The notes below the pieces were generated by a model. It ran no database searches, had not been told where the DNA came from, and saw nothing but the letters and a program-made list of their open reading frames with translations. Made by a program: the position numbers and the translations under genes. Source: a virus (taxonomy: Duplodnaviria > Caudoviricetes). From it: a stretch of DNA of 27,874 nt. The stretch is from positions 1 through 27,874 of IMG/VR virus record IMGVR_UViG_3300021964_000397, one strand, 5' to 3'. Numbering within the stretch: position 1 is the stretch's first letter; each line of letters starts with the position of its first letter. Shown here one piece after another: positions 1 to 23,623 of this stretch.

Positions 1-27
1 ACCAACCAATCGTGCGTGAAAGCTCAT
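1..27 (-). CDS. 5' end of a gene running off the window (MSFHARLVG...)
   Basis: ATG at 25-27 overlaps the upstream TAA as TAATG, the coupling pattern used throughout this operon. Only 9 codons are visible. Confidence 0.55.
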
Positions 28-434
28 TAATCAAACTCCGAAGTCAAATTCCCTGCTGGGTACTTGAAAATGTCTCCATTAGAAATCTCTTTAGTACTAG
101 TAAGTGCTGCGTACATCAACATATTACCTGCTGTAGCAGCATCAAACAAAGCTACATGGGTGATAGTCATAGAGCCTGTCGTCACGACTGCACCGAAAGA
201 CTCCTCTGCTGAATTACTTCCAGAGCCATCCGAAGGCGCATCAAACGCAATAGCCTGTCGTGAATAACCACTCGTATAGTTAGGGTGGTCATCCACTTCG
301 GCAGTCTGCAACCCTGCATCAGTAGGATTATCCGTCATCAAACCCAAATATACTGTTGTAGGGGATGTATAGGAAGTATTCCTCAATACATGATTATAAA
401 GAGCATCCTTCAGATATGTGGTAAGGCTAGACAT
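27..434 (-). CDS. Small phage virion/tail-associated structural protein
   Basis: 135 aa with motifs YL..AL.NHVLR, VYLGL.T..P, GYSRQAIAF and ITHVALFDAAT.GNML, recognised from a widespread small phage tail protein family. Confidence 0.75.
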   Translation of the reverse strand: MSSLTTYLKDALYNHVLRNTSYTSPTTVYLGLMTDNPTDAGLQTAEVDDHPNYTSGYSRQAIAFDAPSDGSGSNSAEESFGAVVTTGSMTITHVALFDAATAGNMLMYAALTSTKEISNGDIFKYPAGNLTSEFD

Positions 435-8389: not shown

Positions 8390-9922
8390 CTAATCTCCAA
8401 AGAAGCTTCGACGTTGTCGTTCAATTACTTTATAGTTATAATCCACAAGTTTAGTAAGCTGCCTCTCTAAAGCTTCCATTTGCTTATCCGAGTAAGAGAC
8501 AGCCTCATTATTGGAAGTCCTTGTGTACATACTCATATAGGCGTTATACATAGCTCTTTGTATCTTATCCTTACGAAATTTTTCACTCTGACCTCTAAAC
8601 TTATTCTGACCTAGAGAATATAAAGCCTCTCCTGTCAAAATCATATTAGATTCCGTGATAAACTCGGCATTTTTCAAAAGTTTACCAACAGTTGCTGTGG
8701 GGTCATTAACTTCAACAGCCTTTTCTTTAGCCCTATCCACTAGATATTGAGACATCCTTGTGCCGGGGAAAGCTTGTTTCAAATTATTTAAGTAAGCTTC
8801 CACCGACTCATTAGATTGTTGCACAAGTTCTTGAAGTGACGCATCGTAAGCTTGTAAGTCAATACCTGTTAAACCTTCTACTATTTCTGCTGCACCGGGA
8901 ACTGCTTGCACAGCTTCTGAGAGAGAAGAGAAAAACCTTCCTTGAATACCAATCTGTGTAGCAACATTAGGGTCTTGTAACACGTTACGAGTTTGTGAAA
9001 TAGCATTTTGTGCTGCTGCAATGGAGGCGTTTGTTTTATCTTGCAAATCTCCTACTTCATCAAAAGCAAGATTACGAGCTAAAGAGCCCTGTCGTGCAAT
9101 CCCCGTCCCCGGAATTATAACAGTCTTAAATTTAGAGCCATCCTCTGTATTAGTAATTTGGGATACTACAATAACCCTTCCATCTTCTGCTCTATAACTA
9201 TCATCAATGTCCTCTGGATTAATGCCAAATTTCCTAAGTTCTTCATCGGTAAGATAATCCAAATCTTTTATGTTTTTGGCGAGGGTAGTTCTAGTTGAAT
9301 ATGACAGGTTAGGATGTACTTCCCCCAGATTTTCCACTGCTCTCTCTAGCTCTGTAGATTGCACTCCTGTAACATCCTCCACAGGTGAAAACCCCGTGTA
9401 AATGCTCGTTGAAACAGAGGGGGGTTCAATATTCGGGTCAGAGGGGGTTTTAATATTCGGGGTAGTAGTAGGAGTCTCTTGGTCGGGAGGATCAAAGTAA
9501 GAAGACCCTGCCGAATTAACCCACGCTTTTACGGATTTATTAATATACTTGTCTATATTATCAGCGGTAATATCCGGGTTCCTGTTGCCTTTGGCATCAT
9601 AGAAAAAAGACTTATAATGATCGAAGTACGCCTCTGTGGCTTCGTCTATATTCTTTGGAGACATACCAGAGGAACGAAGAGCATCTCGAACATAAGGGTT
9701 TAACCCCCCTTTAGTAGCTTCAATATTAGCTGCCTTCTCGTCAATCTTTTTCTGGAGAGCAGCAGCCTTTTGAATCTCAGCAGTATTCTTGGCTTTCTTA
9801 TCTTCTCTTTCAGCCGCAAGACGCTCCTGCTCTGCAAGAAGCTCCATCTCACGTTCCTGTTCTTTCTTGGCCGCATAACTTTGACCAATACCGTGAACCA
9901 CACCTAACATAAACGATCCCAT
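8390..9922 (-). CDS. Internal virion/ejection protein
   Basis: 510 aa. N-terminal MGSFMLGVVHGIG followed by a charged coiled coil is typical of podoviral ejection proteins. Position supports this. Confidence 0.6.
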   Translation of the reverse strand: MGSFMLGVVHGIGQSYAAKKEQEREMELLAEQERLAAEREDKKAKNTAEIQKAAALQKKIDEKAANIEATKGGLNPYVRDALRSSGMSPKNIDEATEAYFDHYKSFFYDAKGNRNPDITADNIDKYINKSVKAWVNSAGSSYFDPPDQETPTTTPNIKTPSDPNIEPPSVSTSIYTGFSPVEDVTGVQSTELERAVENLGEVHPNLSYSTRTTLAKNIKDLDYLTDEELRKFGINPEDIDDSYRAEDGRVIVVSQITNTEDGSKFKTVIIPGTGIARQGSLARNLAFDEVGDLQDKTNASIAAAQNAISQTRNVLQDPNVATQIGIQGRFFSSLSEAVQAVPGAAEIVEGLTGIDLQAYDASLQELVQQSNESVEAYLNNLKQAFPGTRMSQYLVDRAKEKAVEVNDPTATVGKLLKNAEFITESNMILTGEALYSLGQNKFRGQSEKFRKDKIQRAMYNAYMSMYTRTSNNEAVSYSDKQMEALERQLTKLVDYNYKVIERQRRSFFGD

Positions 9923-10458
9923 TACAGCAATCCTTCTGGTTTTTCAAGCAAAGCCATGCCTTTATCTGTATCTTCCAGACCTGTTAAGTCCTTCTGAGAC
10001 TTGGCATTAGCATCAATGGCCTTCTGCAAGTCATTGCGGCTAATCATTTTAGAAATTGCAATATCAATATCTTCCACATCCAACTCCGCATTCTCACTAC
10101 TCACAACCGGCTCAATACCTGCTGCTTCTGACATACGATAAAGCATAACAGTTATAGGAGGCAGAACAATAGGAAGTGCAGTGATAGGAATTTTCCCCTC
10201 TGTAGCAAGGTGATGCACGACAGTGGTTGATACAAGATCAATAGGTATATTGGCCTTCATCATCCCAAGAAAGCGAGCAGCGGTTTTTGGCTGCATAACA
10301 GCATTAAATACCCGGTCAAGAATCTTCTTAGGGTCTGTTTCGGCGGCAGGACGATCATAGGGCATCCTTCGAGGGGCCTGTGTTAGTGCCTCTCCGGGAA
10401 TTGCAGCGTTATGAGACAATTCATCAATCTTCTGCTCTGCCATTTCTTTATTTATCAT
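9922..10458 (-). CDS. Conserved phage hypothetical (likely virion) protein
   Basis: 178 aa. The AIPG.ALT..P...PY..P motif recalls a gene found at this position in related podoviruses. Coupled to both neighbours. Confidence 0.6.
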   Translation of the reverse strand: MINKEMAEQKIDELSHNAAIPGEALTQAPRRMPYDRPAAETDPKKILDRVFNAVMQPKTAARFLGMMKANIPIDLVSTTVVHHLATEGKIPITALPIVLPPITVMLYRMSEAAGIEPVVSSENAELDVEDIDIAISKMISRNDLQKAIDANAKSQKDLTGLEDTDKGMALLEKPEGLL

Positions 10459-10832
10459 GTTACATCATCACCTTTAAGAATCTTCTGCATTTCCCTAAGC
10501 GTCAATTCCTCAACATCGAACGCATCATTTGCGTCTTTCATAAGACTGGCAACATATTCAGAACCTGACAGCTTAATTTTATAACTCTCTGCTTTCTCGG
10601 GAGAGCCTGTTCTAGTCTGTGATCCAGTCTGGTTAGCAATCATTGCAGGGGAACTTGCGCCTCCCCCAGAAACTGCTCCTCTATACCTTTTAAGGCTTGG
10701 TCCTTTACTGCCCCCGCCGCCTTTAAAGACACCCGCAACGTCCTTTACGGCACCGACAACCGATCCGACTGTTTTTGCTGCCGATCCGATTGTTTTTACT
10801 GTACTTCCTATTGATGCTATTGTTGCTGCCAT
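10455..10832 (-). CDS. Small ejection/pilot-type protein
   Basis: 125 aa with an amphipathic G/A/S/T/V-rich N-terminus followed by a Gly run. TAATG coupling to the GNAT gene. Confidence 0.55.
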   Translation of the reverse strand: MAATIASIGSTVKTIGSAAKTVGSVVGAVKDVAGVFKGGGGSKGPSLKRYRGAVSGGGASSPAMIANQTGSQTRTGSPEKAESYKIKLSGSEYVASLMKDANDAFDVEELTLREMQKILKGDDVT

Positions 10833-11287
10833 TAGATGCTCGCTCTATATACCTGTTCAAAAAGCTTAAACCCATACTTGAGAAAAACTTCATTTGCGTT
10901 GGTGGGCTTATTAACGGCGATAGATGTCATTGTCATACTACTTGCTCCATGCTCTCTTGCCCACTCAATTCCTGCCTCCATTATTTCACTTCCAATACCT
11001 GCTGAACGAGCTTCTTCATCTACATAGAAGAAGTACTCACTCGCGACTATCTTGGAATTATCGAAGAAAAAGGGGTTAAGGATAAGACCTATCATCCCTC
11101 TTAGCCGTCCATCAGTTTCATAAAGAAGAATCGTCCCGTCAGGGCTCTCTGTAAGTCCCTCTAGAAGTGATCTAACATCCTCCCCTACATAAGTTGTATT
11201 CGGGGGGAGATTATCTAGCTCTGAGCAAAATACCTCTCCAAGTGATATTAGTGTATCAAAATCGTCTTCTGTTGCTACTCTAATCAA
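10832..11287 (-). CDS. GNAT-family acetyl/acyltransferase
   Basis: IRVAT.DD N-terminus, motif A FYVDEEARSAGIGSEI, W-A-R-E-H-G-A segment and motif B F.KYGF. TTG start with AGGAGGG SD. Confidence 0.88.
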   Translation of the reverse strand: MIRVATEDDFDTLISLGEVFCSELDNLPPNTTYVGEDVRSLLEGLTESPDGTILLYETDGRLRGMIGLILNPFFFDNSKIVASEYFFYVDEEARSAGIGSEIMEAGIEWAREHGASSMTMTSIAVNKPTNANEVFLKYGFKLFEQVYRASI

Positions 11288-11585: not shown

Positions 11586-14390
11586 TTAGAATCCTAACCA
11601 ATCTGGATTAGAGCCTGTCCCAATATCGAGACCTCCGCCAATATTTCCAAAATCAGTATCTACTACTCCAAAATCATCACCAAAGCCAAAGGAGAAGTCC
11701 CCGGCGGGCTGAGTACTGCCTCCATCAAAGATACCTCCAATACTGTCAAAAGCATCTCCGATGCCTCCAATTACCCCACCGATAGAGGACCCAGCCTGAA
11801 ACTTCTGTTCTTTATCAGCGAGTTTCAAGTTAGTGTTAGCTTGAAGGTTAGCAATAGCGAGAGACAAAGCTCTATCCTCTGCCTTCTCATTGGAATTCCA
11901 AGTATAGCTTGCGTTGTCTCTAAATAGCATAATTGCATTAGACATTGCTGTATTACTAATATTCAACAGGTTCTGTGAATTAACAAGGTTCTGCTGGTTC
12001 TGAAACTGGTTATTCGCTGTATTAATAGCTCTCAGATAGTTTACATTAGACTGCTCTACCAGAATAGCATTACGAGCATCGAACTGTTCTCTCTGATTCA
12101 ACATAGTTGAGTTAAACTGGTCAGCATCCAACTGCTGAGAAGCTACAAATTGATCCATATTAGCGGTCAACTGAGCAAAGAACTGGTCAAGCTGAACTTC
12201 GTTCTGTACGTTCATTTGTCGAGCAGCGTTTACAGCAGCTTGGTCTGATAACATAGACTGGAGCCTAGCCTGTGCATTAACAACAGCCGTTTGCTGGGCA
12301 TTAGTCAGGTTTGTCATATCCATCTGCAAGAACGCCTGAGCATTAGCGATGTTAGCCTGCTGACGATTATTAAGATTAGCCATTCCAAAGTTGTTGGCAA
12401 CCTCAGCATTAAACATAGAGGTCTGCTGTCTATTAGCCAGATTCCCCATATCCATCTGCAAAGACGCCTGAGCGTTCTGGAGAGCAGTTCTGGTTTCAGC
12501 ATCCAAGTTCGTCAGGTCCATCTGCAAGAACGCCTGAGCGTTTGCCATAGCTGCCTGCTGACGATTATTAAGATTAGCCATCCCAAAAGCATTGGCAGCT
12601 TCGGTATTGAAGAGGGTAGTCTGCTGACGATTAGCCAAGTTAGCCATCGTAACATTTAAAGCTGAGAGAGCGTTCTGCATGACAGCCTTGGTTTGATTAT
12701 CCAAGTTCGTCAGGTCCATCTGCAAATTAGCAGCCGCATTAGCCATAGCTGCCTGCTGACGATTACCTGTATTCTGCATTGCAACCGTAATCAGGTTCTG
12801 AGCATTGGCGACTCTCGACTGCTGTTCTGCGTTTAGATTAGCAAGGTTTAGCTGTAGGGCTGTCTGAGCATTTTGAAGACCTGCCTGAATCTTGAAGTTA
12901 TTACTCTGAGAGTCCAGAGCAGCAATGTGACTAGCTTTCATGATAGTTGCTGATTGACGAGCATCAAACTTCTTAAGCTGCATTGTTTCAAACATCTTAG
13001 CATCTTGAGAAGCGATAGGTAGAGCAGCTTGCAGAACGGCGGCAGTAGTTGCGCCTCCAGAAATGGAAGAGGAACTAATACCCCGTGCAGCCATTTGCTG
13101 ATTAGCGGCTGTCAGAGCCCCTTTCGCCCAGTTAGGAATTTCGCCCGGCTCAAAATCCGTAAGCTGACGATACTGTTCTCTTACCGTAGCTCTGGGATCA
13201 ACAGGGAAATTAATAGCATCCGACTTAGCTTCCTCAATGGCATTATTGAAAGCAGTTGTTGCCTGAAACTCAATCGCATTGACTAATTGCTCAGGAGTCA
13301 TATTTGCCTGAGCAGCATTAATCTGCATATCCGGGGTCAAATTAGTCTGTGCAGCCTCCACAATAGACTCAGGGCTTAACCCGCCTAGTGGCACATTTGC
13401 TACAGCTTCTGGAGGAAGCGTAGTCTGTTCTGCAACAGCCTGAGAAGCAGGGAGACCTGTCGCCGGGTCTACTAAGGCGTCCTGAGAAACCTCTCCTGTA
13501 GGGGCATTAGCAATAGAATCCGGGGATAATGTACCCTGAGCGGCATTAGCTTGTGCCACAGGAAGACCCGTTGCAGGGTCTACTTGAGCTCCCTGAGAGA
13601 GCTCTCCCTGAGCAGCCGTGACTTGCGGAGTGGCTGTTCCAATAGTATCAGCCGTCATCTGAGGCGTATCAGTCTGAGCCGGGGCTTGAATATTTGAAGC
13701 ACTTATTTGAGGGACGTTAGGGTCTAGTTGAACGCCCTGCATTTGCTCGTTAGCCTGAACTTCTTGTAGAGCAGCTTGATACAGAGCATTTTCAGGTAAT
13801 TCTGGGTTATCTATAAGAGACTGGTTGAAGGCTTCAACATCAAAGCCAGTATCAGTGCCTGTTCCTGTATCAGTGCCTGTTCCTGTACCAGTACCTGCTC
13901 CTGTACCAGTGCCTGCTCCTGTACCAGTGCCTGTTCCTGTATATACGCTAGTTCCGACACTGCCTCCTCCGACACCAAAAATACCATTAACTGATCCATT
14001 ATAGATCATATTCAGATTATTAGCAATACCTTGTAACTGGTCTGGGTTAAGATTGGAAAACTGAGGATTCTGAGACAGGTTTAACACATTACCGCTAGGT
14101 TGCGTCACCACAATATCACCGGAAGTTGGTGTTGAGGTAGTCGTAGCCGTAGGGGCTGCGCTGGGTGTTGAGGTAGTCGTAGCCGTAGGGGCTGCGCTGG
14201 GTACAGTCTGTACTCCTGTTTGTGCAAAGTCTCTCGCCATTGCTAACCTTGAAGCTCTATCCTCTGCCTTCTCAGGTGAAGGTCGCCCGTAGTCGTAAAG
14301 CGTTTGAACTATTGGACCCGTGCCCGGAGCAGAAGATTTAGCTCTTTCAAGAAGCTCCTCAAAATGTGGGATATTTGGTAGAGTAGACAT
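11586..14390 (-). CDS. Internal virion/ejection protein with 22-aa Q/N/A coiled-coil repeats (putative DNA-delivery channel)
   Basis: 934 aa with a low-complexity N-terminus, 11/13-aa acidic repeats, a central IP.WA...MAARG segment, at least ten 22-aa repeats and a Gly-rich C-terminus. Confidence 0.72.
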   Translation of the reverse strand: MSTLPNIPHFEELLERAKSSAPGTGPIVQTLYDYGRPSPEKAEDRASRLAMARDFAQTGVQTVPSAAPTATTTSTPSAAPTATTTSTPTSGDIVVTQPSGNVLNLSQNPQFSNLNPDQLQGIANNLNMIYNGSVNGIFGVGGGSVGTSVYTGTGTGTGAGTGTGAGTGTGTGTDTGTGTDTGFDVEAFNQSLIDNPELPENALYQAALQEVQANEQMQGVQLDPNVPQISASNIQAPAQTDTPQMTADTIGTATPQVTAAQGELSQGAQVDPATGLPVAQANAAQGTLSPDSIANAPTGEVSQDALVDPATGLPASQAVAEQTTLPPEAVANVPLGGLSPESIVEAAQTNLTPDMQINAAQANMTPEQLVNAIEFQATTAFNNAIEEAKSDAINFPVDPRATVREQYRQLTDFEPGEIPNWAKGALTAANQQMAARGISSSSISGGATTAAVLQAALPIASQDAKMFETMQLKKFDARQSATIMKASHIAALDSQSNNFKIQAGLQNAQTALQLNLANLNAEQQSRVANAQNLITVAMQNTGNRQQAAMANAAANLQMDLTNLDNQTKAVMQNALSALNVTMANLANRQQTTLFNTEAANAFGMANLNNRQQAAMANAQAFLQMDLTNLDAETRTALQNAQASLQMDMGNLANRQQTSMFNAEVANNFGMANLNNRQQANIANAQAFLQMDMTNLTNAQQTAVVNAQARLQSMLSDQAAVNAARQMNVQNEVQLDQFFAQLTANMDQFVASQQLDADQFNSTMLNQREQFDARNAILVEQSNVNYLRAINTANNQFQNQQNLVNSQNLLNISNTAMSNAIMLFRDNASYTWNSNEKAEDRALSLAIANLQANTNLKLADKEQKFQAGSSIGGVIGGIGDAFDSIGGIFDGGSTQPAGDFSFGFGDDFGVVDTDFGNIGGGLDIGTGSNPDWLGF
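12249..12908 (-). repeat. Ten 22-aa (66-nt) repeats with a 198-nt super-period
   Basis: catctgcaa recurs at 12321, 12519 and 12717; example unit ANLNNRQQAAMANAQAFLQMDL. Confidence 0.9.
13281..13655 (-). repeat. Ten 11-13-aa repeats with a 111-nt super-period
   Basis: VDPATGLP occurs twice, 37 aa apart (gggtctac at 13465 and 13576), among xAxQGxLSxxxxV/A units. Confidence 0.8.
13845..13940 (-). repeat. Gly-Thr (GTGA/GTDT) dipeptide repeat linker
   Basis: Degenerate 6/18-nt repeats encoding TGTGTGTGAGTGTGAGTGTGTGTDTGTGTDTG. Confidence 0.85.
14128..14199. repeat. Perfect 36-nt tandem duplication (PSAAPTATTTST x2)
   Basis: ggtgttgaggtagtcgtagccgtaggggctgcgctg at 14128-14163 and 14164-14199. 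Confidence 0.95.
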
Positions 14391-16396
14391 TACGCAATCC
14401 TCTCATTCAGGTCTTTAATATGGAGGGTTAGTACTTCTACTGTTTCCCAAAGAGAGTTAATTAGCTGGCCTGTACTCCACTTACCCTCCAACCATTCTTC
14501 ACGAGTGGGCATTGCGGGAAGGCTTCCTGTGGACAGAAACTCGTTAATATACGTATCTACATCGAGAGTAGACTGTGTGCGCTGTTCTAGGAACGTATCT
14601 ACAGGACTAGGGCCATCACCTGTCCAGAGAGAATTATAGAAGTCTACTTGGTCAGTATCTAGTTTGCTATTATAGAAGTCAGCTACATAGTCAGTGAGGA
14701 GTGTGTTGTCATCATAGACCGCTGTAGCGTTCAATGTCCCAGCACCTTTAAGACCGCCCGTAGGGGCACCTAGAGTAACACCATCACCAATTACCATTGC
14801 ATCTGTGTCTAGAGTCCCGGAGACCATTGTAGCGAAAGACCAAGAACCTTCTTCTGTAGTATCCGTTACATTATCCATTGTGTAGGAGATTCTGCCGAAA
14901 TTCGTAGCGTTAGCTCCTGAGTCATTAGCGAAAATATTATGAAGTATCAAAACATCAGAAACTGCAGGCGTAGGAGAGTTCCAGTAAGTCGTATAAACCG
15001 ACCCGAATGTAGAATTGGTAGGGGTATCTGTAACGAGGAAAATACCTTCATTTTCTGCATCATAGTAAGAAGCGTGAGAAGTATTAGAACCATCTACCCG
15101 AAACGCTATGCCGCTTGATACAGAGGTGGGAAAAACTGCCTCGTATGCAGCATGTCTGATGCCACCATTTACAGTACTAGAAATAGTACTCGTTCCGATG
15201 CCCTCACTAGTGTTAAAAGTATGATCACCTGTCCAATCAATATCATCTAAATAACCTACAGCCCCGAGGGATGTACGTGCCGTTGTTCCTGACTCTGCAA
15301 CCCAATTTGTTCCATTACCTACGATGAACTTACCATCAGTAACCGCAAGACCAGCGATGTCTGCCAAGCCAGCATCATAAGCCTGAACGTCAGTGCCGAT
15401 TGCAAGGCCAAGCGATGTACGTGCCGTTGCACCTGACTCTGCAACCCAGTTAGTACCATTACCGACGATGATATTACCATCCGTTACAGCAAGCCCAGAG
15501 ATGTCTGCCAAGCCAGCATCATAAGCCTGAACGTCAGTGCCGATTGTGAGCCCAAGCGATGTACGTGCTGTTGCACCTGACTCTGCAACCCAATTAGAGC
15601 CGTCACCTACAATAAAGTTACTATTAGTAACCGCAAGACCAGCGATGTCTGCCAAGCCAGCATCATAGGCCTGAACATCAGTGCCAATAGCAAGTCCTAG
15701 ATTAGTTCGTGCAGAACTTGCACTATCAAGATCACTAAGATTATTAGTAACCAATGCCGCTTCGGTTGTTGAAGGAACACCTAGAGAAGTACGTGCCGTT
15801 GATCCTGACTCTGCAACCCAATTTGTTCCATTACCTACGATGAAATTACCATCCGTTACAGCAAGCCCAGAGATGTCATTAAGCCCCGCATCATAAGCCT
15901 GAACGTCAGTTCCGATAGCGAGACCAAGGTTAGTTCGTGCAGAACTTGCACTAGCAAGATCACTAAGATTATTAGCGACCAAAGCAGCTTCGGCTGTTGA
16001 AGGAACACCTAGAGAAGTACGGGCCGTAGCTCCAGATTCTGCAACCCAGTTAGTACCATTACCGACGATGATATTACCATCCGTTACAGAAAGCCCAGAG
16101 ATGTCATTAAGCCCCGCATCATACGCCTGAACGTCAGTGCCGATAACAAGTCCTAAAGAAGTTCTCGCCCCGGAGGCTGTAGAGGATGCTGTACCACCAT
16201 TTGCAACAGGAAGAATCCCTGAAACAGCCGCAGTAAGGGAGATTTTAGGGCCTTCCCCGGCGGAGCCATCATGGGCATGGCCTGTAGAGGCGTTAAAAGC
16301 AGATTCAAGAGCATTATACTCGTTGTTGAAATAGGACGCTTCAATAACTGCCGCATCTACAATATTTGCTGCTTCTTGTCGTGTATAACCAGCCAT
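14390..16396 (-). CDS. Tail fibre with repeat shaft and C-terminal chaperone-like domain
   Basis: N-terminal MAGYTRQ...FNNEYN.L..AF...TGH.HDG...EG anchor, LPVANGGT and ARTSLG fibre motifs. C-terminal DYV...LP.MP......GQL...LWE.VE.LTL.I resembles intramolecular chaperone tails. Confidence 0.85.
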   Translation of the reverse strand: MAGYTRQEAANIVDAAVIEASYFNNEYNALESAFNASTGHAHDGSAGEGPKISLTAAVSGILPVANGGTASSTASGARTSLGLVIGTDVQAYDAGLNDISGLSVTDGNIIVGNGTNWVAESGATARTSLGVPSTAEAALVANNLSDLASASSARTNLGLAIGTDVQAYDAGLNDISGLAVTDGNFIVGNGTNWVAESGSTARTSLGVPSTTEAALVTNNLSDLDSASSARTNLGLAIGTDVQAYDAGLADIAGLAVTNSNFIVGDGSNWVAESGATARTSLGLTIGTDVQAYDAGLADISGLAVTDGNIIVGNGTNWVAESGATARTSLGLAIGTDVQAYDAGLADIAGLAVTDGKFIVGNGTNWVAESGTTARTSLGAVGYLDDIDWTGDHTFNTSEGIGTSTISSTVNGGIRHAAYEAVFPTSVSSGIAFRVDGSNTSHASYYDAENEGIFLVTDTPTNSTFGSVYTTYWNSPTPAVSDVLILHNIFANDSGANATNFGRISYTMDNVTDTTEEGSWSFATMVSGTLDTDAMVIGDGVTLGAPTGGLKGAGTLNATAVYDDNTLLTDYVADFYNSKLDTDQVDFYNSLWTGDGPSPVDTFLEQRTQSTLDVDTYINEFLSTGSLPAMPTREEWLEGKWSTGQLINSLWETVEVLTLHIKDLNERIA
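15263..16150 (-). repeat. Tail-fibre tandem repeats A-B-A-B-A-A-A (A = 144 nt/48 aa, B = 84 nt/28 aa)
   Basis: The WVAESG-coding segment recurs at spacings of 144, 144, 228 and 228 nt. Confidence 0.95.
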
Positions 16397-17907
16397 TATC
16401 TGTTACCTTTTTGTGCAAACTCAATAGAGAACCCATCGACGATGTAGGGGGTGTCTCCTGACGTATTTGATGTTAATTTCACTGAATGGAAGAACCCAGA
16501 GCCAATTAACCCTACTTCTGCTGTTTCATCAGCAATTGAATCAAAATTATTTGTTCCAAAAACAGCCGTCCCAAAGAAGGAATTACTAACAAAGTAATCC
16601 TCCAAAGCAATAGCAGCAGGCTGGATAATTCCATTCTCCTCAAAGTCAAAGAGACTTTCCAAGCTAATACTGCTGCCACCTTCTCGCCGGGCATACACAC
16701 TTAGTTTCTGAGGGACTTTTCTCTTTTCAGGATCACCATAGTACCACCAAGGAAACTGCATAATTGATGTAATTGTTGTTCCATCAAAGTCTGATCCAAG
16801 CTCTTGTTGATGGACATACCCTTCATAGTCTCCGTGTACAACAACCAGATCATTATTTTCATAATTATAGTCGCAGCAGGATACTTTAATTCCTTTAAGA
16901 TCGAACCATTCCCACTCCGAAGCAATCTCAGGGAGTTGAAGAATGTCCGTATGAAGATGCCCTAGAAGCCCTTTAGCACTTTCTGCTGGTTCACTCTCTG
17001 AGCCCCAGAAAAGGCGGTACTGGGATTTACTAGGAACTTGAACGGAGGAAACATCATACGTCCCTGCTTTGGAGATAACCTCCTCAATTCGTGTTTCAAT
17101 AGCTCTGGTCTTGGTATCAATATTGACTTCACCAGTTTCCTCTGTACCTGAAATAGTACGGATACCGTCTTGTGCTAGGAAGTAAAGATCACCTGCAAGT
17201 TCTTGAATGGAGTCAGGAGCAATACACCCAATTCTCTCAGTTACTGGGATTACAGCCCAATCCGCAGAGGAGGACCCCGTTAGGCGACTTATCTGATTAG
17301 GGCCAAAAATATAAAGCTCGCCTCTCCAGAGAGCAGCAGAATTAAGGGCCTTCCCAATGTTAATCTCGGCTGCACCGTTAGCGCCATCAAAGTCTGTCTC
17401 GTCACCGGGAGCGGAAATAAAAAGGGACTGGTCCTTAATAAACACCATATGGCGCTTATGTGAGTGTACGAAAGTGGCTCCTTGAGGCGCATCTGTAAGT
17501 TCGGTTACAGTGCCATCTTGGTCATAGGTTACGGGGTAATCAACACTATTAACCAAACAAATAGTAGGCTTAATCCAATTGTATCGTTCAATCCTTGTTT
17601 TACCACCAGAAAGTCCTGTCTTAATAATAGACCAACCACTTCCCGTACTAAAGTAATAACCAGTCCCTCTGGCCGCTACTACGCCCCCTCTAAAGGGGAA
17701 CGCTCCTAGTACCTTCCCTGTCCCTGTGACAGCGTTGGTATCATACTTCTGAAATCCATTAATTCGTCGGTAGCCTCTACCTGTCGCACCCTCAATATTC
17801 TGTCCTTGAATAAGTGCGCCGGGGGCTCTAGCTCCTAGAGTAAGAACGGAAGATGACTCAATAACCCCTCCGGTAGCTTCTACTGGAAATGTCTGCCAGC
17901 GATCCAT
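16396..17907 (-). CDS. Tail nozzle / tail tubular protein B-like
   Basis: 503 aa, beta-rich, with GYRRINGF.K and IGCIAPDSIQE...DLYFLA.DGIR motifs. Lies between adaptor and fibre. Confidence 0.78.
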   Translation of the reverse strand: MDRWQTFPVEATGGVIESSSVLTLGARAPGALIQGQNIEGATGRGYRRINGFQKYDTNAVTGTGKVLGAFPFRGGVVAARGTGYYFSTGSGWSIIKTGLSGGKTRIERYNWIKPTICLVNSVDYPVTYDQDGTVTELTDAPQGATFVHSHKRHMVFIKDQSLFISAPGDETDFDGANGAAEINIGKALNSAALWRGELYIFGPNQISRLTGSSSADWAVIPVTERIGCIAPDSIQELAGDLYFLAQDGIRTISGTEETGEVNIDTKTRAIETRIEEVISKAGTYDVSSVQVPSKSQYRLFWGSESEPAESAKGLLGHLHTDILQLPEIASEWEWFDLKGIKVSCCDYNYENNDLVVVHGDYEGYVHQQELGSDFDGTTITSIMQFPWWYYGDPEKRKVPQKLSVYARREGGSSISLESLFDFEENGIIQPAAIALEDYFVSNSFFGTAVFGTNNFDSIADETAEVGLIGSGFFHSVKLTSNTSGDTPYIVDGFSIEFAQKGNR

Positions 17908-18641
17908 TAATTTACTCTCAAGCTTGTCAGGAGATTTCTATCCTGAATTTCTCTTGTATCAAACACCTGTCGTGTCTTATTTATTAGGAGAGTTCGCATA
18001 TTCGACAGACCCTCTTCCCATCTACTTTTAGAGATTTGAGAAGACTCAAGATTATCTCTAAACATATAACAATCCCAAAGAGCTCTCTGTACAATTACAT
18101 AGTCAAATCGAGTGGGGATGGTTGTAGTATCATCGTGTGCAGAAACTGCTGTAGGGAATTGCCAGTACTCATACGTCACATTATATGCCAAGTCAGAATA
18201 ACCGGGGTAGATGGCTACTTTGCTATTTTGGGTAGGGGAAATAAACTCTGGTTCCCCTGCTTCACTGGCAGTCATATTGATGTTATTGGCACGAGTACCA
18301 TGCTTCATATATTCATCATAAGGAACAACAGGAAGATACTTCTCTCCAATAGCTGAAGAAGGTACTCCTTCGACTAAATGAAAAGACTCCCAATCCACTG
18401 ACTGTGCATCAGCAGCAAGGGAGTACTCTGTCGTTCCATCGGTAAGCAAGGTTAGAGTGTCTGTAGAGTGATTAAAAGGCCACTCAATCTCAGCTTGCTG
18501 AATTTCTTCAATAGCATCCAGAACAGCATCTTTAGCTGTAGCGTGGAAGCCAGTAGCAGTTGCGAAGTTAGAACTCGTTAATTCTACTTCGTTGAGCCTG
18601 CGAAGGACTTTATTAGTAAGTGATAGGTAGGTGCTGCCCAT
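17907..18641 (-). CDS. Head-tail adaptor / tail tubular protein A-like
   Basis: TYL.L.N.VLRRLNEV, EWPF and IP.RF..VIV motifs. Follows the head genes. Confidence 0.8.
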   Translation of the reverse strand: MGSTYLSLTNKVLRRLNEVELTSSNFATATGFHATAKDAVLDAIEEIQQAEIEWPFNHSTDTLTLLTDGTTEYSLAADAQSVDWESFHLVEGVPSSAIGEKYLPVVPYDEYMKHGTRANNINMTASEAGEPEFISPTQNSKVAIYPGYSDLAYNVTYEYWQFPTAVSAHDDTTTIPTRFDYVIVQRALWDCYMFRDNLESSQISKSRWEEGLSNMRTLLINKTRQVFDTREIQDRNLLTSLRVN

Positions 18642-19264: not shown

Positions 19265-20188
19265 TTACACCGTACGCCAGTTTGCACCGACAAGAGCTTC
19301 CGTACGAAGCGCCTTCCGACCAAACATGTGCATACCACGAACAACGTCAGCAAAGCTGTCAGGGTCACGGTATGTTTCGGTCTTATTAATCTGCTCGGCA
19401 GAAGCCACGGCAGAAATATGACCAGCCAACAGCCAAGTACCATTGGTGCCAGAGGTAGCGGTAGAACCAGTACCTACAGTAGCAAGGTTATTTGACATGT
19501 AGACGTTGAAGCCCCGGATCATGCCGTCAGATACCCGGCCATTACGCAGGATGCCTTTTTCAGCATAATCAGCACTCAGCAGGTTGCTGTCTTCATCACC
19601 GATCAGTTCCCAGAAGAACGGATCAGCAACAAACCAACGACCTTCCTCGGGGACATCTGCTTCATCAAGCACACGCTTCATGCGATTGAGAATACCCAGA
19701 GGTGAGTAATCGGGGGAGCCACTATTAGCAATAGTAGCCTGAGCGGACTCAGTACCCAACTGGTTAGCAGTAGGAATCTGAGAGTCGATATATGCCAGAA
19801 TGTTCTGGTCCATACCATTAGCAAGTTGGTACCCGGCACGGCTGGAAGCCAACTGGTTCCAATTGTGATGGGCCTGCTTCTTTTCAATGTCATCGACTTT
19901 GAAGGCGAAGTAGTTAGCCTGATCTACCGTCAAGGTAATTTCGTCATCATCGAGGTCCTGAGCAGTCACCTGAGTCCCACGTGAGTAGGGCAGAACAGTG
20001 ACTTCAGGTTCACGGATAATGTGTACCGTATCGCCGTAGTCCGAAATCTCCCCAAAGTATTCTGTGTTGCAGATACTCTGACAAACACTCTTCGTGCGGA
20101 AAGCAATCTGAGCGCGACGGGAGTAGATTTCCGGCGTGAAATTACCTTGTGGAAGGTTGCCGTAACCGGCAGCAGTTTGGAAAGCCAT
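19265..20188 (-). CDS. Major capsid protein (HK97 fold, P22-coat-like)
   Basis: Likely start ATG 20188 (AAGGAG SD). Motifs GNF.PEIYS, N.EY.GEI...GDTV.I, LDEADVPEEGRW.V and E.YR..DSFAD.VRG.H.FG.K. Confidence 0.92.
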   Translation of the reverse strand: MAFQTAAGYGNLPQGNFTPEIYSRRAQIAFRTKSVCQSICNTEYFGEISDYGDTVHIIREPEVTVLPYSRGTQVTAQDLDDDEITLTVDQANYFAFKVDDIEKKQAHHNWNQLASSRAGYQLANGMDQNILAYIDSQIPTANQLGTESAQATIANSGSPDYSPLGILNRMKRVLDEADVPEEGRWFVADPFFWELIGDEDSNLLSADYAEKGILRNGRVSDGMIRGFNVYMSNNLATVGTGSTATSGTNGTWLLAGHISAVASAEQINKTETYRDPDSFADVVRGMHMFGRKALRTEALVGANWRTV

Positions 20189-20222
20189 TGTTAATTCTCC
20201 TTTAGCTTTATTCCACAAAGAA

Positions 20223-21520: not shown

Positions 21521-23623
21521 CTACTGTGGTGGCATTTCAGGCTCTACAGGAGCTCCTTGCTGCTGTGGTTGTCCCGGAAAGCCTTCTTGTCCCGGTTGGG
21601 CAGGGACGGGAGGAGCCATTCCTCCTGTAGCACCCTGCTGAGGGCCTACTGGTCCACCTCCGGGCTGTCCTCCTTGCTGAATCATCTGAATAACCTGCTG
21701 CAATTCAGGATCATTAAGAAGCTTGCTTTCCTCAATATCCAAAGCCTTAGCAATTTCCTTGATAATAGCTCCTTGATTGAGGAAAGGAGACTGCTGTGCA
21801 ATCTGGAAGAAAGAAATAAGCTGATTAGCCCGTACTTCCTTCTGAATCAAGCTTTCCGTACCCATTGCTTTAATAGCAAGGTCACCTCGGACTTCAAGAT
21901 CACGATTATACTGCATGTTAAACGCAAACATTGCCTGCCCAAGTGGAGCAAACAAGTAATCATCGAAATTCTTAATAATAGTCTTAATAGTGACGGAGGC
22001 AGCGCCCAGAAGCTGAGAAATACCTGACGCTGTTCGTCCTACACCTTGAACCCCTGTTTGACCATGAGCAAAGGAAGGGATACCTGTAGACTGATCAGCA
22101 AACACAATGAACTTGTCAATCAACTGCATCAATTCAGGTGTAATGTTCTTGAAACTGGTGGAGAAGATAGCCTGTCCCGGCGCACCACCTCTCCTGCGCC
22201 AAACTTTGCCCGGATAAACAGACATATCCTGTCCCGGCATAAGATTGTTCTCGTCAACCTCAATCATAATATTACCAGAAAGAACTGCATTGTCAACCGA
22301 CATGCGGGTGAATCCATTAACCATTCGCTGAGAGTCTTCCATGTTCTCTGGAATGCCTACTCCCCAAATATTATAAAGATCAACTTCGAGAGGATAAATG
22401 ATGTAAGGAATTCTCTTAGGCCGGAAGGGGTTCATAACCATACGTATAACGACACCATTCAGCATCCAGACGTTTACTTGAATATCATCAGCATCCTCCA
22501 AGTTCTCGGGAATATCAAAACCTTCATCTTCAAGGTTCTCTCGGCTTTCAATGCCCCAGTATTCAAGGACTTCAAAACGATTATCGTGCGTCTGGTCTTC
22601 TAAGTCCTCACGAAGATTATGCTCCCACCACTCTGCAACATAATTTGAAGCAGTAGAGATAGCTTCATCAATCTGATCCGCAATGAATCCGGGCTGTTTC
22701 TTCAACAGGCGAATTTGGGATGCAGACATCAAGTGTCTGTCAATAATGTACTCGGCATCATAAGCTGTCGTACAATTAGGATCAGGGTAGATATCCCATA
22801 CAGACCTATATTCAAGATCAGGAACAATCTTAAAGATTGGGTCATACTCACGAGGGAGGAGCTCTCCTTCTGGACCTTCATCTACTTCTGGAACTCGCCA
22901 ATTAGGATATTCCTTCTCAGTAATGAAAGGTCCTTTAATGCACCCTGCACCAAGAATAGCTGCTTGAAGCATGGACTTTCGGAGTTCAATCTGGGCGTCA
23001 GCCTCTGTAAGCTGATCCTGAATGGTCTCGTCCATCTCCTCGGCTGCTTCTTGTGCTGGGGATTTCTTAATACCAACAGCCGAAGGGTCTTCTGTGATGT
23101 GTTCATCAGGAATACCTTTCAGCTTCTGTTTAAGAGCTTCTCCAATACGAGCAACACGAGACCCTACTGTATCACCGGGTTGGAGGTCTTTCCCATCCCC
23201 TTCATAACCAAAAATAGAGAGGTCTTCTGGGTCAATCTCAGGACCTTCCTGTTGAGCTTCCGCAGTAATTGTGATTTCTTTAGCGATGCCTGTGGGCTTC
23301 TCTGTCGCTTGTACTTCAAGAGGAACCTTTCCTTGACCAAAGAGAATATCAATGATCTGTCCGTAACCCGCCAAGGTCTTGGTCTTTGTAATCTTGATCG
23401 TCGCTTTAGACTTTTCAGTTGCTGTGAAGTTTTCCTTAAAGACTCCTCGGAACTGATCGTGAGCAGCCATCCACCGCTGCTCTGTTACCAGACGATTACG
23501 CTTGGCAGCTTGGTACTTTTCACTAATAGAGCTTGCGAGAGATGTTAAGGCCATAGCCTCTTCATCGTTTTCAGGTTGTCCTGCTAGGACTGCTGTTTCC
23601 TGATCGTCAAAACCTTCGGCCAT
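21521..23623 (-). CDS. Portal protein
   Basis: 700 aa after terL, with WDIYPDP, FEVLEYWG, WGVGIPE, DN..LSGN and RTASG.S motifs and a Q/G/P-rich tail. Confidence 0.92.
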   Translation of the reverse strand: MAEGFDDQETAVLAGQPENDEEAMALTSLASSISEKYQAAKRNRLVTEQRWMAAHDQFRGVFKENFTATEKSKATIKITKTKTLAGYGQIIDILFGQGKVPLEVQATEKPTGIAKEITITAEAQQEGPEIDPEDLSIFGYEGDGKDLQPGDTVGSRVARIGEALKQKLKGIPDEHITEDPSAVGIKKSPAQEAAEEMDETIQDQLTEADAQIELRKSMLQAAILGAGCIKGPFITEKEYPNWRVPEVDEGPEGELLPREYDPIFKIVPDLEYRSVWDIYPDPNCTTAYDAEYIIDRHLMSASQIRLLKKQPGFIADQIDEAISTASNYVAEWWEHNLREDLEDQTHDNRFEVLEYWGIESRENLEDEGFDIPENLEDADDIQVNVWMLNGVVIRMVMNPFRPKRIPYIIYPLEVDLYNIWGVGIPENMEDSQRMVNGFTRMSVDNAVLSGNIMIEVDENNLMPGQDMSVYPGKVWRRRGGAPGQAIFSTSFKNITPELMQLIDKFIVFADQSTGIPSFAHGQTGVQGVGRTASGISQLLGAASVTIKTIIKNFDDYLFAPLGQAMFAFNMQYNRDLEVRGDLAIKAMGTESLIQKEVRANQLISFFQIAQQSPFLNQGAIIKEIAKALDIEESKLLNDPELQQVIQMIQQGGQPGGGPVGPQQGATGGMAPPVPAQPGQEGFPGQPQQQGAPVEPEMPPQ

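Follow-up and report, generated by a model that had tools for sequence, protein, structure and literature searches.

In P22, the needle gene comes after the nozzle gene and before the genes for the ejection proteins. Needles of the P22 gp26 and SU10 gp18 kind close the tail channel of the virion until infection, when they are released. The H protein of phiX174 is alpha-helical with an 11-residue periodicity. Class I fusion proteins form a trimer of hairpins in the post-fusion state, with the 'leash in groove' of influenza HA2 as one form, and the arms of SMC and Rad50 are antiparallel intramolecular coiled coils in which helix packs on helix, residue for residue. To our knowledge, needles have no second length-matched array, and the Peptidase_S74 chaperone is known only from external trimeric fibres and spikes. 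The order in SU10 is described as gp17 nozzle, gp18 trimeric coiled-coil needle and gp20 ejection protein (PMC9509320). The heptad number of P22-like needles varies, with 11 in P22 and Sf6 versus 16 in HS1, and their tips are mosaic (PMC3741392). In phiX174, ten H chains form a tube with a lining of amide and guanidinium groups (PMC7354561). In T7-, P22- and RIO-1-type phages, an acetyltransferase marks the start of the internal-virion-protein (IVP) block (PMC4819975). Hardies et al. place HMO-2011 in its own tail group, and their table gives no IVP-D homologue for it. HMO-2011-type phages are reported as a dominant group that is widely distributed in the sea (PMC9038755).

The window analysed here is a stretch of 27,874 nucleotides (IMG/VR virus record IMGVR_UViG_3300021964_000397). 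It carries a gene for a 934-aa protein with two repeat blocks, which the first-pass annotation had placed at 12249-13655; this corresponds to residues 246-714 of the minus-strand ORF 11586-14390. The parts of the gene are as follows.

11586..14390, minus strand: gene for the 934-aa protein (P0001), from ORF call and translation
13848..14201, minus strand: N-terminal low-complexity linkers upstream of the anchor, two repeats
13740..13823, minus strand: N-side anchor motif, residues 190-217, ..IDNPELPENALYQAALQEVQANEQMQ.., from an iterated HMM
13281..13655, minus strand: N-block, residues 246-370, ten units of 11-13 aa, from unit cutting and periodicity
12909..13280, minus strand: central region, residues 371-494, from invariant columns in alignments A1 and A2
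12249..12908, minus strand: C-block, residues 495-714, ten units of 22 aa, from unit cutting and periodicity
11811..12248, minus strand: C-terminal conserved helical domain, residues 715-860, LSDQAA.NA..QFNA..., from an HMM
11589..11810, minus strand: C-terminal tail, residues 861-934, GGVIGGIGDAFDSIGGIFDGG..., Gly-rich and moderately hydrophobic

Two repeats lie in the N-terminal linkers: PSAAPTATTTST at 14128-14202 (2.1 copies of 36 nt, 100% matches) and a GT-rich one at 13849-13941 (5.2 copies of 18 nt, 93% matches). The anchor, whose family consensus is NPxLPxG...P....G.LIDPxTG, was detected by the iterated HMM in 110 of 210 family sequences (E<0.02) and was used as the distal boundary for N-region length. 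In the central region, a proximal helix of 26 aa precedes the conserved core VDPRATV..EQY..L.DF.PGE.P.WA.GA...ALPIA.QDA. Nowhere are invariant columns of the family alignments denser than in this region, and 852 cluster representatives matched it at E<=0.001 in a search without length restriction. The C-terminal helical domain was matched by HMM in 121 of 121 sequences, and a weak 11-aa periodicity runs on into it (lags 11-44, z ~3); in an AF2 model of the relative P0074, the corresponding region is a long helix (pLDDT 75-85). The tail contains small-xxx-small motifs and is variable across the family: 208 family tails have a median of 34 aa, 89 of them have a zipper-type motif, and 117 have a 15-aa window with a Kyte-Doolittle mean >=1.0. 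The best such window in the query tail reaches 1.13, which is only moderately hydrophobic.

P0001 is a member of a very large unannotated podophage tail-module protein family. With 8000 candidates scored in each case, 1483 relatives of the 934-aa protein were found at E<=1e-5 and more than 7000 family matches at E<=1e-10; about 3800 matching stretches were estimated for IMG/VR. The family was found in HMO-2011-type phages of SAR11, SAR116 and Roseobacter, and the 21 phage records with a relative either call it 'hypothetical protein' (20 records) or leave it unannotated (one). The 934-aa protein had no match in Pfam or PHROGs, a profile of 66 family members matched no PDB chain at E<=1, and Foldseek with a low-confidence model of the relative P0074 returned nothing at E<=0.001. 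No virion proteomics or structure for family members or HMO-2011-type phages was found in the literature searched. Mosaic N-terminal domains (RTX, DUF4214) occur in the family. A Peptidase_S74 intramolecular chaperone is located at the C-terminus of P0046 (residues 911-971, E = 3.6e-12) and is precomputed for 4 of 120 proteins among the matches listed (P0046, P0055, P0057 and P0077), while the query's own 934-aa protein is without it.

Recutting the query reproduced the ten N units and ten C units reported before. The N units (12, 13, 11, 13, 13, 11, 13, 13, 13 and 13 aa) are rich in Ala, Thr, Pro and Gln and have a three-unit super-period of 37 aa; the C units are rich in Gln, Asn, Ala and Leu, contain two hendecads each and have a three-unit super-period of 66 aa. 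Periodicity was scored against 500 residue shuffles, none of which was as high as any observed value (N-block, z = 7.7 at lag 37 aa and 7.3 at lag 13 aa; C-block, z = 16.2 at lag 66 aa, 11.4 at lag 22 and 4.8 at lag 11). Super-periods of 111 and 198 nt had been claimed for the two blocks. The 198-nt period stands in both DNA and protein and is the sole block period given by Tandem Repeats Finder (12319-12765, 2.3 copies, 77% matches), whereas the 111-nt period stands in protein only, the N copies having 58% nucleotide identity and 30% at third positions.

Several unit classes recur within the blocks. Residues in common amount to 17, 14 and 19 of 22 among C units 3, 6 and 9, to 16 of 22 between C units 5 and 8 (FN.E.AN.FGM type), and to 10 of 22 between C units 4 and 7. 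N units 3 and 6 (DPATGLP) score 49 versus a self-score of 56, and the resemblance is weaker in the classes N 2/5/8 and N 4/7, which score 28-29. Counted outward from the central domain, the classes fall at equal positions in both blocks, which agrees with the mirror order described in the first-pass annotation. In the query protein alone this match is weak evidence, because the chance of matching the mirrored offset is roughly 1 in 4, an estimate that assumes two 3-periodic stretches of about 7 units within 10; the equality of ten and ten units also hinges on the sites where the blocks are cut. The support for mirrored arrays comes from comparing the sequences of relatives, not from the query alone.

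Of 194 unique family members, 189 have the central domain and the LSDQ motif separated by a multiple of 22 aa, and in 158 of the 194 this spacing is a multiple of 110 aa. The helical array occurs in classes of 44, 66, 110, 132, 154, 176, 220, 264, 286, 330, 440 and 550 aa and changes in steps of 22 aa, rarely 11 aa. It ranges from 2 to 25 units in the survey and is a single unit in two phage isolates; two SAR11 phages have 8 and 1 units. Over 1590 C units from 194 proteins, Pro is absent or <=0.1% at every position, positions 3 (96%) and 11 (99%) are hydrophobic, positions 14, 18 and 22 are Ala or Leu, and position 7 is Gln (89%), with a core spacing of 4-4-3. On this set, the 22-aa unit is a helix that lacks proline and follows a hendecad pattern. 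The N regions of the family contain 4.6% Pro and 6.0% Gly.

The length of the N side tracks that of the C-block. The predicted correlation between the N and C sides was observed across 2-25 units, the N side growing by about 12.2 aa (one N unit) for each 22-aa C unit. Measured on the 99 of 194 unique rows with a detectable N anchor, the two lengths gave a Spearman coefficient of 0.95 and a Theil-Sen slope of 0.561 (0.545-0.574). The class minima follow N = 0.556*C + 50.6 (r = 0.9995 over 10 classes). Slopes were steeper in ordinary regression on all anchored rows (0.70, r = 0.91) and for class medians (0.75, r = 0.87), which is due to 6 of the 99 rows with N-side insertions of 31-248 aa above the class minimum; the extra length consists of discrete inserts at the distal end, not of spread-out slack. 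The query fits the line (N-block of 125 aa versus 0.556*220 = 122), and Slicky01 lies 17 aa above it. An anchor-free check was made on a 121-sequence table: all compared pre-central lengths were greater than the line, including the smallest in each main class. Possible exceptions came from the search without length restriction, where at least five short proteins have a pre-central region below the line and no clear anchor; in P0338, for example, 5 units go with about 63 aa, and in P0382, 2 units go with about 28 aa. These may be truncated gene calls, or real forms without the full N-side strand.

The coupled changes were also detected on the family tree. Parsimony gives at least 14 changes of unit class, and in phylogenetic contrasts with abs(dC) >= 11 aa the sign of dN agrees in 20 of 21 (p = 2e-5). 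A few big classes of 5, 10 and 15 units, largely clades, hold most of the rows. In the cleanest sister pair, L044 and P0016, a 110-aa gap lies at units 9.9-13.9 from the centre and a 60-aa gap at units 10.1-14.0, so the indels are mirrored at matching distances from the central domain; for P0077/P0029 and P0071/P0015 the mirrored arrangement fits better than the parallel one. Read directly from the sequences, N and C units number 10:10 in the query and 7:7 in P0002 and P0003, and L002, the closest relative of the query, has 12:12, in line with the one-to-one expectation. When the query is aligned with P0002, there is a three-unit gap in each block (P0002 is without 3 C units and 37 N residues), with conserved proximal (N7-10, C1-5) and distal (N1-2, C8-10) units and a variable middle. 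The stronger claim that the blocks must duplicate together in a single event is not supported: synonymous sites are saturated in the N copies (6 identical codons of 20 versus 7.4 expected), and the C copies have an excess of identical codons (30 of 43 versus 21.5 expected).

Since the N and C lengths keep step and the indels are mirrored, the chain appears to fold back on itself. This topology is strongly inferred from sequence comparison; block-to-block contact was seen neither in two AF2 monomer models, both poor, nor in an underpowered covariation map. Our main reading, for which we estimate a probability of about 0.6, is that the two arrays are locked, that the chain folds back at the central domain and its N strand runs antiparallel along a likely trimeric rod, and that the protein has a needle-like role. 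The N-block would be an extended leash, the C-block a coiled-coil rod and the conserved central region the turn of the hairpin. An alpha-helix rises 1.5 Å per residue. Each 12-aa N unit, with one helical turn and an extended stretch at about 2.7 Å per residue, would span the 33 Å of one 22-aa C unit along the rod. With leash and rod matched unit by unit, a change in one array would be tolerated only with a matching change in the other, and the length of the rod would change only when both arrays change. Both termini, with their variable domains, would come together at the same end of the rod, opposite the conserved central domain. A fully extended chain spans about 3.4 Å per residue, so 2.7 Å would leave about 20% slack in the leash, and one array may lead the other by one or two units.

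The role of the protein was judged from its gene neighbourhood and from the chaperone domain in some homologues. The minus-strand order is adaptor, nozzle-like, fibre, the 934-aa gene, GNAT and then large proteins with lysozyme, and the neighbours named in the text are listed here.

17907-18641, minus strand: adaptor, from family searches
16396-17907, minus strand: nozzle-like protein, from family searches
14390-16396, minus strand: fibre, from family searches
10832..11287, minus strand: GNAT acetyltransferase in the T7 IVP-A position, from family searches (PMC4819975)
9922..10458, minus strand: 178-aa protein with no assigned function, a homologue of which follows the family gene in relatives

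The IVP-like block comprises the GNAT, the 178-aa protein, proteins of 510 and 1223 aa and a 992-aa protein with lysozyme and ART domains. A scan of 23 homologues of the 178-aa protein gave no recurring Pfam family and none at the curated cut-off. The gene position as in P22 and SU10, together with a trimer-specific chaperone in some homologues, leads to the reading of a tail needle or central-fibre-like rod. By this analogy, which is the least certain step, the 934-aa protein is likely such a rod and likely trimeric; it would be docked in the tail by its conserved end, with the variable end towards the host.

Of the alternatives, an internal ejection protein survives best, though we consider it unlikely. 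Such a protein would be stored in the head, be expelled at infection and assemble an envelope-spanning conduit, alone or with the downstream proteins; the unit number would set the length of the conduit, and the leash would stabilise the stored or extended form. This agrees with a gene that adjoins the IVP-like block and is followed in 54 of 81 loci by a homologue of the 178-aa protein, with a protein that is almost wholly helical and Gln/Asn-rich (the H tube is lined similarly; PMC7354561), and with the composition of the C-terminal tail. However, the IVP block opens with the acetyltransferase (PMC4819975), and the 934-aa gene is located upstream of it; for this reason we do not keep the earlier label 'ejection protein'. 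Arrays of 1-25 units correspond to about 3 to 83 nm of helix, far beyond the variation of Gram-negative envelopes, and the 8 and 1 units of the two SAR11 phages point in the same direction; the idea of a ruler matched to host envelope width is not supported by the same numbers. By rough estimate, the longest forms, if rigid, would also exceed the inner diameter of a head for a genome of about 55 kb. The RTX and DUF4214 domains resemble surface modules, and the S74 chaperone in some homologues, 4 of 120 among those listed, likewise speaks against an internal protein. A DNA tube of the phiX174 H type, as first suggested, was not supported either, since neither H nor any other PDB chain was matched and the chaperone in homologues is of a trimer type; where such a tube would have a terminal transmembrane helix, the query tail is no more than moderately hydrophobic.

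A dynamic version of the hairpin is doubtful. In it, some of the most abundant podophages of the ocean would have a new, modular and self-measuring rod: a trimeric hendecad coiled coil would be zipped from end to end by its own N strand, with one unit of 12 residues for each unit of 22, and the leash would unzip at infection, like a class I fusion protein in reverse. Unzipping would release the variable N-terminal domains or double the reach of the needle to breach the envelope, and length would evolve only in mirrored pairs of blocks.

It is improbable, but compatible with part of the data, that the N array is a taut tether instead of a packed leash, so that two arms span an equal distance without touching, one site holding both termini and a second site the central domain. 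The scaling law requires equal spans only. Between clades, the sequence of the N side is little conserved. The two AF2 monomer models were poor (mean pLDDT 56.1 and 60.2; pTM 0.27 and 0.31) and gave the N side low confidence; the N-block of the query came out as coil, about half of its units having a single short helical turn. Covariation analysis (MI-APC, 141 sequences, Neff 35, underpowered) gave no significant anti-diagonal (z = 1.4). A tether needs a minimum length only, yet in the close relatives of P0074, where C = 110 in 117 of 117 measured, N stays at 119-123 aa in the 103 anchored proteins while the region upstream of the anchor varies freely and these relatives measure 617 to 1048 aa overall. 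Within clades the N region is conserved, many of its columns in alignment A2 being nearly invariant, the unit types of the query are mirrored between the blocks, and surplus N length sits in discrete distal inserts, not in slack. These points favour a packed leash.

We regard as very improbable a three-helix bundle made of a helical N side and a C-block folded in two, which would give N ~ C/2. The slope (0.55) is close to 0.5, and the AF2 models split the long helix into segments; in the P0074 model, part of the N region was predicted helical. However, the Theil-Sen interval excludes 0.5, and the helix breaks fall in stretches with pLDDT below 50. Pro is missing and Gly almost missing throughout the C units, which thus have no conserved turn, units are added at various sites of the array, which would shift any turn, and the N-block of the query contains 10% Pro and 7% Gly. 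Finally, that the correlation is a structurally meaningless by-product of shared descent or anchor definitions, as the few clade-like classes and an anchor detected in only half of the sequences might suggest, has next to no probability given the repeated class changes and same-sign contrasts on the tree, twelve distinct classes on one line including sister pairs 10/12, 20/25 and 10/15, the anchor-free lower bound, and a prediction that predates the inspection of any relative.

In summary, a huge family of podophage proteins, annotated merely as 'hypothetical', contains two unlike repeat arrays in one protein under a tight length rule, which is rare. Its cultivable relatives include phages of Pseudoalteromonas, Rhizobium and Roseobacter. 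The rule yields a fold topology without a structure and poses an evolutionary puzzle of how two separate arrays change in step. If the reading as a needle is true, a major group of marine phages would have its central tail fibre identified, and the length of this fibre would be freely tunable.

Compared with known systems, the family resembles the T7-type IVP-B, -C and -D in its neighbouring genes, highly helical character and fast divergence (PMC4819975), but its gene lies upstream of the IVP-A-like acetyltransferase and no IVP family was matched. As in SMC and Rad50, two distant segments of the same chain would have equal span and discrete length steps, and because such segments must keep equal span their lengths co-vary in evolution; in the family the ratio is 12 to 22, with an N side that contains Pro and Gly and is largely non-helical. 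With phiX174 H, a phage protein used at entry, the family shares an alpha-helical, Gln/Asn/Arg-rich character and the 11-residue periodicity, but the sequences do not match, a length-matched second array is absent from H, the trimer-type chaperone in homologues argues against an H-like decamer, and the query comes from a tailed dsDNA phage, which has a nozzle and ejection proteins of its own. The proposed fold is like that of class I fusion proteins in its trimeric coiled coil with an antiparallel, partly extended outer layer from the same chain, in the matched layer lengths and in having both chain ends at one end of the rod. It differs in that there is no homology, both layers are tandem arrays whose copy number varies among close relatives, the polarity is reversed with the leash N-terminal to the helix, and the family gives no evidence for a conformational switch or membrane fusion.

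The comparison with needles is the one on which the proposed role is based. The sequences show no similarity to known needles such as P22 gp26, hendecads and 22-mers take the place of heptads in the shaft, the conserved part is central instead of N-terminal, and a second, N-side array keeps step with the shaft, which would bring both termini to one end. The size range is far wider than in needles. Known needles are trimers, and here a trimer is suggested by the S74 chaperone in some homologues. As with P22 gp26, there is a long, probably coiled-coil shaft whose repeat number differs among relatives (PMC3741392). Consistent with both P22 gp26 and SU10 gp18, the gene lies between the nozzle/fibre genes and the ejection/IVP block, and the protein would combine one conserved virion-binding part with mosaic host-facing parts.

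The gene of the 934-aa protein lies in the tail module of a 27.9-kb phage contig, whose minus strand carries nearly all of the genes. The 'genome' of the record is the window itself, and no near-identical DNA was found in the phage collection. Gene identities were assigned by Pfam and PHROGs scans.

Genes of the window
23636-25750, large terminase
21521-23623, SU10-type portal
19265-20218, major capsid protein
17907-18641, SU10-type adaptor
16396-17907, nozzle-like protein
14390-16396, tail fibre with repeats
11586-14390, minus strand, 934-aa repeat-array protein
between the 934-aa gene and the GNAT gene, 92-aa ORF
10832-11287, GNAT acetyltransferase
after the GNAT gene and before the 992-aa gene, proteins of 125, 178, 510 and 1223 aa
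1738-4716, minus strand, 992-aa protein with lysozyme and ART-PolyVal domains

The last protein of the internal-virion-like block, with 992 aa, has a lysozyme-type stretch (residues ~427-571) and an ART-PolyVal ADP-ribosyltransferase domain (675-814; PF18760, E = 4e-8), so that one likely ejected protein would combine wall-degrading and ADP-ribosylating modules. An HNH endonuclease gene (26338-26628, minus strand) is directly upstream of the terminase genes, an ordinary pairing that is usual for HNH-assisted packaging. A 135-aa protein (27-434, minus strand) matched Pfam Gp80, 'Podophage GP4 fiber I protein' (E = 2e-37), a family that PHROGs labels as head protein. The neighbours of the 934-aa gene gave no PHROG match at E<=5. 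Homologues of the ~178-aa protein (9922-10458, minus strand) follow the family gene in 54 of 81 related loci, mostly within a few hundred bases, and no recurrent Pfam family was detected among the 23 homologues scanned. It may be a partner of the 934-aa protein or an IVP-B analogue.

The first-pass annotation had placed two repeat arrays in the 934-aa protein, in a span corresponding to residues 246-714. Both arrays were confirmed with exactly the same unit boundaries: ten N units of 12, 13, 11, 13, 13, 11, 13, 13, 13 and 13 aa (246-370), and ten C units of 22 aa (495-714), separated by the central domain. Compared with residue shuffles, the N-block was periodic at 37 aa (z = 7.7) and 13 aa (z = 7.3), and the C-block at 66, 44, 22 and 11 aa (z = 16.2, 12.0, 11.4 and 4.8). 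The three-unit super-period claimed for both blocks was thus present in the protein (37 and 66 aa); at the DNA level only the 198-nt period was detected, and the 111-nt period was not. Three classes were distinguished in each block: 3/6 (DPATGLP), 2/5/8 and 4/7 among the N units, and 3/6/9, 4/7 and 5/8 among the C units. Counted outward from the central domain, N and C classes face each other as had been described. In the 934-aa protein alone this mirror match could be due to chance, at roughly 1 in 4.

The two blocks had also been proposed to duplicate together. Of 20 residues identical between the N copies, 6 used the same codon (7.4 expected), indicating synonymous saturation, while the C copies kept a modest excess (30 of 43 versus 21.5 expected, z = 2.9). 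A single duplication event of the same age is therefore unsupported by the synonymous sites. Two young DNA-level tandem repeats were found in the N-terminal linker, one at 14128-14202 (minus strand, residues 64-88; 36 nt x 2.1, 100% matches, PSAAPTATTTST) and one at 13849-13941 (minus strand, residues 151-181; 18 nt x 5.2, 93% matches, GTGTGA-type). In contrast, the main N and C arrays are old and diverged.

The family of this protein is very large. The 934-aa query detected 1483 proteins at E<=1e-5 among 8000 candidates scored, and a five-unit member detected 7288 at E<=1e-10 among 8000 candidates. The central domain alone gave 852 representatives at 50% identity, and an estimated 3800 matching stretches exist in IMG/VR. 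By tblastn, a relative was found in 21 records of podophages, of the HMO-2011 type or allied to it, with hosts in Roseobacter, Pelagibacter, Puniceispirillum, Rhizobium, Sinorhizobium, Aeromonas and Pseudoalteromonas; the matching gene was labelled 'hypothetical protein' in 20 records and unannotated in one. No Pfam or PHROGs model corresponded to the family, and no relative was present among solved chains. The central domain matched only unnamed viral clusters in the Protein Atlas, and a P22_gp7 cluster was rejected for it (score 0.85, below the trust level of the tool).

The length of the helical block is quantised. HMMs located both the central and the C-terminal domain in all 121 proteins of the first search, and the spacing between the two domains took only discrete values. 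Block length was then defined from the central domain to the conserved LSDQ motif for 129 proteins pooled with the ORFs of 81 loci (194 unique sequences). It was a multiple of 22 aa in 189 of these sequences, and a multiple of 110 aa (5, 10, 15, 20 or 25 units) in 158. Sister proteins differ by five-unit blocks (110 aa) together with 53-60 aa on the N side; the step in the query's own clade is three units, in contrast to the five-unit blocks dominant in the whole family. The block of Roseobacter phage CRP-9 gp40 (locus L084, 428-3493) is 99 aa, or 4.5 units, so the true quantum is the 11-residue hendecad and 22 aa is the usual step. Among 1590 units, proline was absent or <=0.1% at every position, glycine was rare except at position 22, and hydrophobic or small residues occupied positions 3, 11, 14, 18 and 22 (with Gln at 7), which is the 4-4-3 spacing of hendecads. 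This pattern has the look of a long, uninterrupted coiled coil.

To relate the two sides, the motif NPxLPxG...G.LIDPxTG, a conserved mark at the distal end of the N side, was used as an anchor, and N-side length was counted from it to the central domain. An iterated HMM located the anchor in 99 of the 194 unique sequences (110 of all 210), and rows lacking this boundary did not enter the scaling.

Helical block length in the 194 unique sequences, and N-side length in the anchored ones
44 aa (2 units): 15 sequences; N side 76-84 aa
66 aa (3 units): 1 sequence; N side 90 aa
110 aa (5 units): 59 sequences; N side 111-123 aa
132 aa (6 units): 7 sequences; N side 120-123 aa
154 aa (7 units): 3 sequences; N side 139-151 aa
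176 aa (8 units): 3 sequences
220 aa (10 units): 75 sequences; N side 175-187 aa (query 175 aa)
264 aa (12 units): 1 sequence; N side 193 aa
286 aa (13 units): 1 sequence
330 aa (15 units): 17 sequences; N side 231-237 aa
440 aa (20 units): 6 sequences; N side 298 aa
550 aa (25 units): 1 sequence; N side 357 aa
odd values (99, 101 or 137 aa): 5 sequences

As the first-pass annotation had predicted, the two sides were correlated across homologues, with about 12.2 N residues for each 22-aa unit from 2 to 25 units. The class minima followed N = 0.556*C + 50.6 (r = 0.9995), and all 99 anchored rows gave a Theil-Sen slope of 0.561 (0.545-0.574) and a Spearman coefficient of 0.95. Ordinary regression (slope 0.70, r = 0.91) and class medians (slope 0.75, r = 0.87) were looser because six rows carried N-side extras of 31-248 aa above the class minimum, which in the four rows aligned were discrete inserts at the distal end. 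A pelagiphage class with 8 units by the LSDQ motif has an N side of 148-151 aa, and the line gives 148.5. The ten N units of the query comprise 125 aa versus 122 aa for 0.556 x 220, and the intercept of ~51 aa is roughly the query's 26-aa proximal helix plus its 28-aa distal linker.

The correlation was also observed along a tree of the 99 rows built from the central and C-terminal domains only. The unit class changed at least 14 times, independent contrasts gave r = 0.80, and in 20 of the 21 contrasts with a helical change of at least 11 aa the N side changed with the same sign (p = 2e-5). The single opposite contrast involved rows with a large N-side insert. Around the five-unit member P0074, each of 117 close relatives had a helical block of 110 aa, and the N side was 119-123 aa in all 103 with an anchor, while total length ranged from 617 to 1048 aa through variation upstream of the anchor. 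The N side is therefore constrained in length, beyond being merely long enough.

The relative direction of the two arrays was read from the positions of indels. The sister proteins L044 and P0016, with 25 and 20 units, share 85% sequence identity over the helical block and 62% over the N region. When they are aligned globally, a single 110-aa gap falls 9.9-13.9 units away from the central domain in the helical block, and a single 60-aa gap falls 10.1-14.0 units away in the N region; a parallel arrangement would put the latter at units 12.1-16.1. The mirrored arrangement also fitted better for P0077/P0029 and P0071/P0015, whose N regions are only ~30% identical, and three other pairs were ambiguous or uninformative. 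In a comparison of the query with L002 (12 units), its closest relative, both ends of each block are conserved: four N and five C units next to the central domain, and two or three units at the distal end. The middle is variable in both blocks. Compared with P0002 and P0004, the query has three more C units and 37 more N residues.

These data strongly suggest that the protein folds back on itself: the central domain would form the turn, and the N strand would return alongside the rod, so that the two termini come to lie together. The rise of a helix is 1.5 Å per residue, so one 22-aa unit covers 33 Å and its 12.2 matching N residues would span 2.7 Å each on average. This is too long for a helix and slightly short of a fully extended strand, and it fits an N unit made of one helical turn and an extended stretch. 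The AF2 model of the query, at low confidence, drew such an arrangement for roughly half the N units, with short helices of three residues at 266-268, 279-281, 290-292, 303-305 and 340-342. The N strand could instead run taut beside the rod. We infer that it would be packed on the rod, because of the narrow length tolerance, the N-side conservation within clades and the mirrored unit types. The AF2 monomer models of the query and P0074 were poor, of low confidence and without bearing on block contacts, and Foldseek found no match with the poor P0074 model. A mutual information map (APC-corrected) of 141 five-unit sequences, too few effectively (Neff 35), gave a best antiparallel band of z = 1.4, and a parallel band of z = 2.55 at an extreme offset with little coverage.

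The searches for the main data set were restricted to proteins of 513-1635 or 408-1299 aa. A length-free search listed shorter members, and five of these (339-499 aa), sampled from 150 representatives, all had short regions before the central core: ~63 aa with five units (P0338), ~38 and ~28 aa with two units (P0302 and P0382), and ~52 and ~70 aa with one unit (P0383 and P0273). The anchor was absent in four, and P0273 had an anchor-like motif. These short members could be gene calls cut short or genuine forms with little, partial or no N-side leash, and they bear directly on the fold-back model.

For the role of the protein, an envelope-spanning ruler matched to the host had been suggested. 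It fits poorly with the wide range of unit counts (1 to 25) and with the 8 and 1 units of two SAR11 phages; the counts of 5, 5, 5 and 4.5 in four roseophages of a single strain are neutral because these phages are related. The earlier label of ejection protein may also apply, because needles themselves are expelled. The 934-aa protein is more likely a trimeric needle or central-fibre-like rod, by analogy in gene order, Peptidase_S74 domains and variable terminal modules and tails. The 934-aa gene sits between the fibre gene and the acetyltransferase. According to PMC4819975, an acetyltransferase opens the internal-virion-protein block right after the nozzle gene in T7-, P22-, epsilon15- and RIO-1-type podophages. 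The portal and adaptor families of the window match those of SU10, for which PMC9509320 gives the order as gp17 (nozzle), gp18 (a trimeric coiled-coil tail needle) and then ejection proteins such as gp20. Other family members carry N-terminal RTX or DUF4214 modules, and the C-terminal tails are short, Gly-rich and variable. A Peptidase_S74 intramolecular chaperone, a domain known from trimeric fibres and spikes, ends 4 of the 120 homologues listed and was confirmed for P0046. Many five-unit members (the P0074 clade, alignment A2) end in a Cys/Trp-rich module, CWVAREVYG...WF.FR.W....AP.WF, which the query lacks and which is another mosaic C-terminal tip. In such a needle the central domain, which is conserved, would be the part docked in the tail, and the two variable termini would form the host-facing tip.

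Neither the family nor such a length rule was described in the literature searched; Martinez-Goikoetxea and Lupas 2023, cited on new hendecad families in PMC13580157, was outside that comparison. Antiparallel arms of matched length are a known feature of SMC and Rad50 proteins, and of class I fusion proteins as well. Length-variable needles are already known in P22-like phages, with a conserved virion-binding end, a coiled-coil shaft of 11 or 16 heptads and mosaic tips, as given in PMC3741392. The two unlike tandem arrays of the 934-aa family, which keep a 12:22 step while their size varies twelve-fold, seem to be a novel variation on both these arms and the P22-like needles of variable length.
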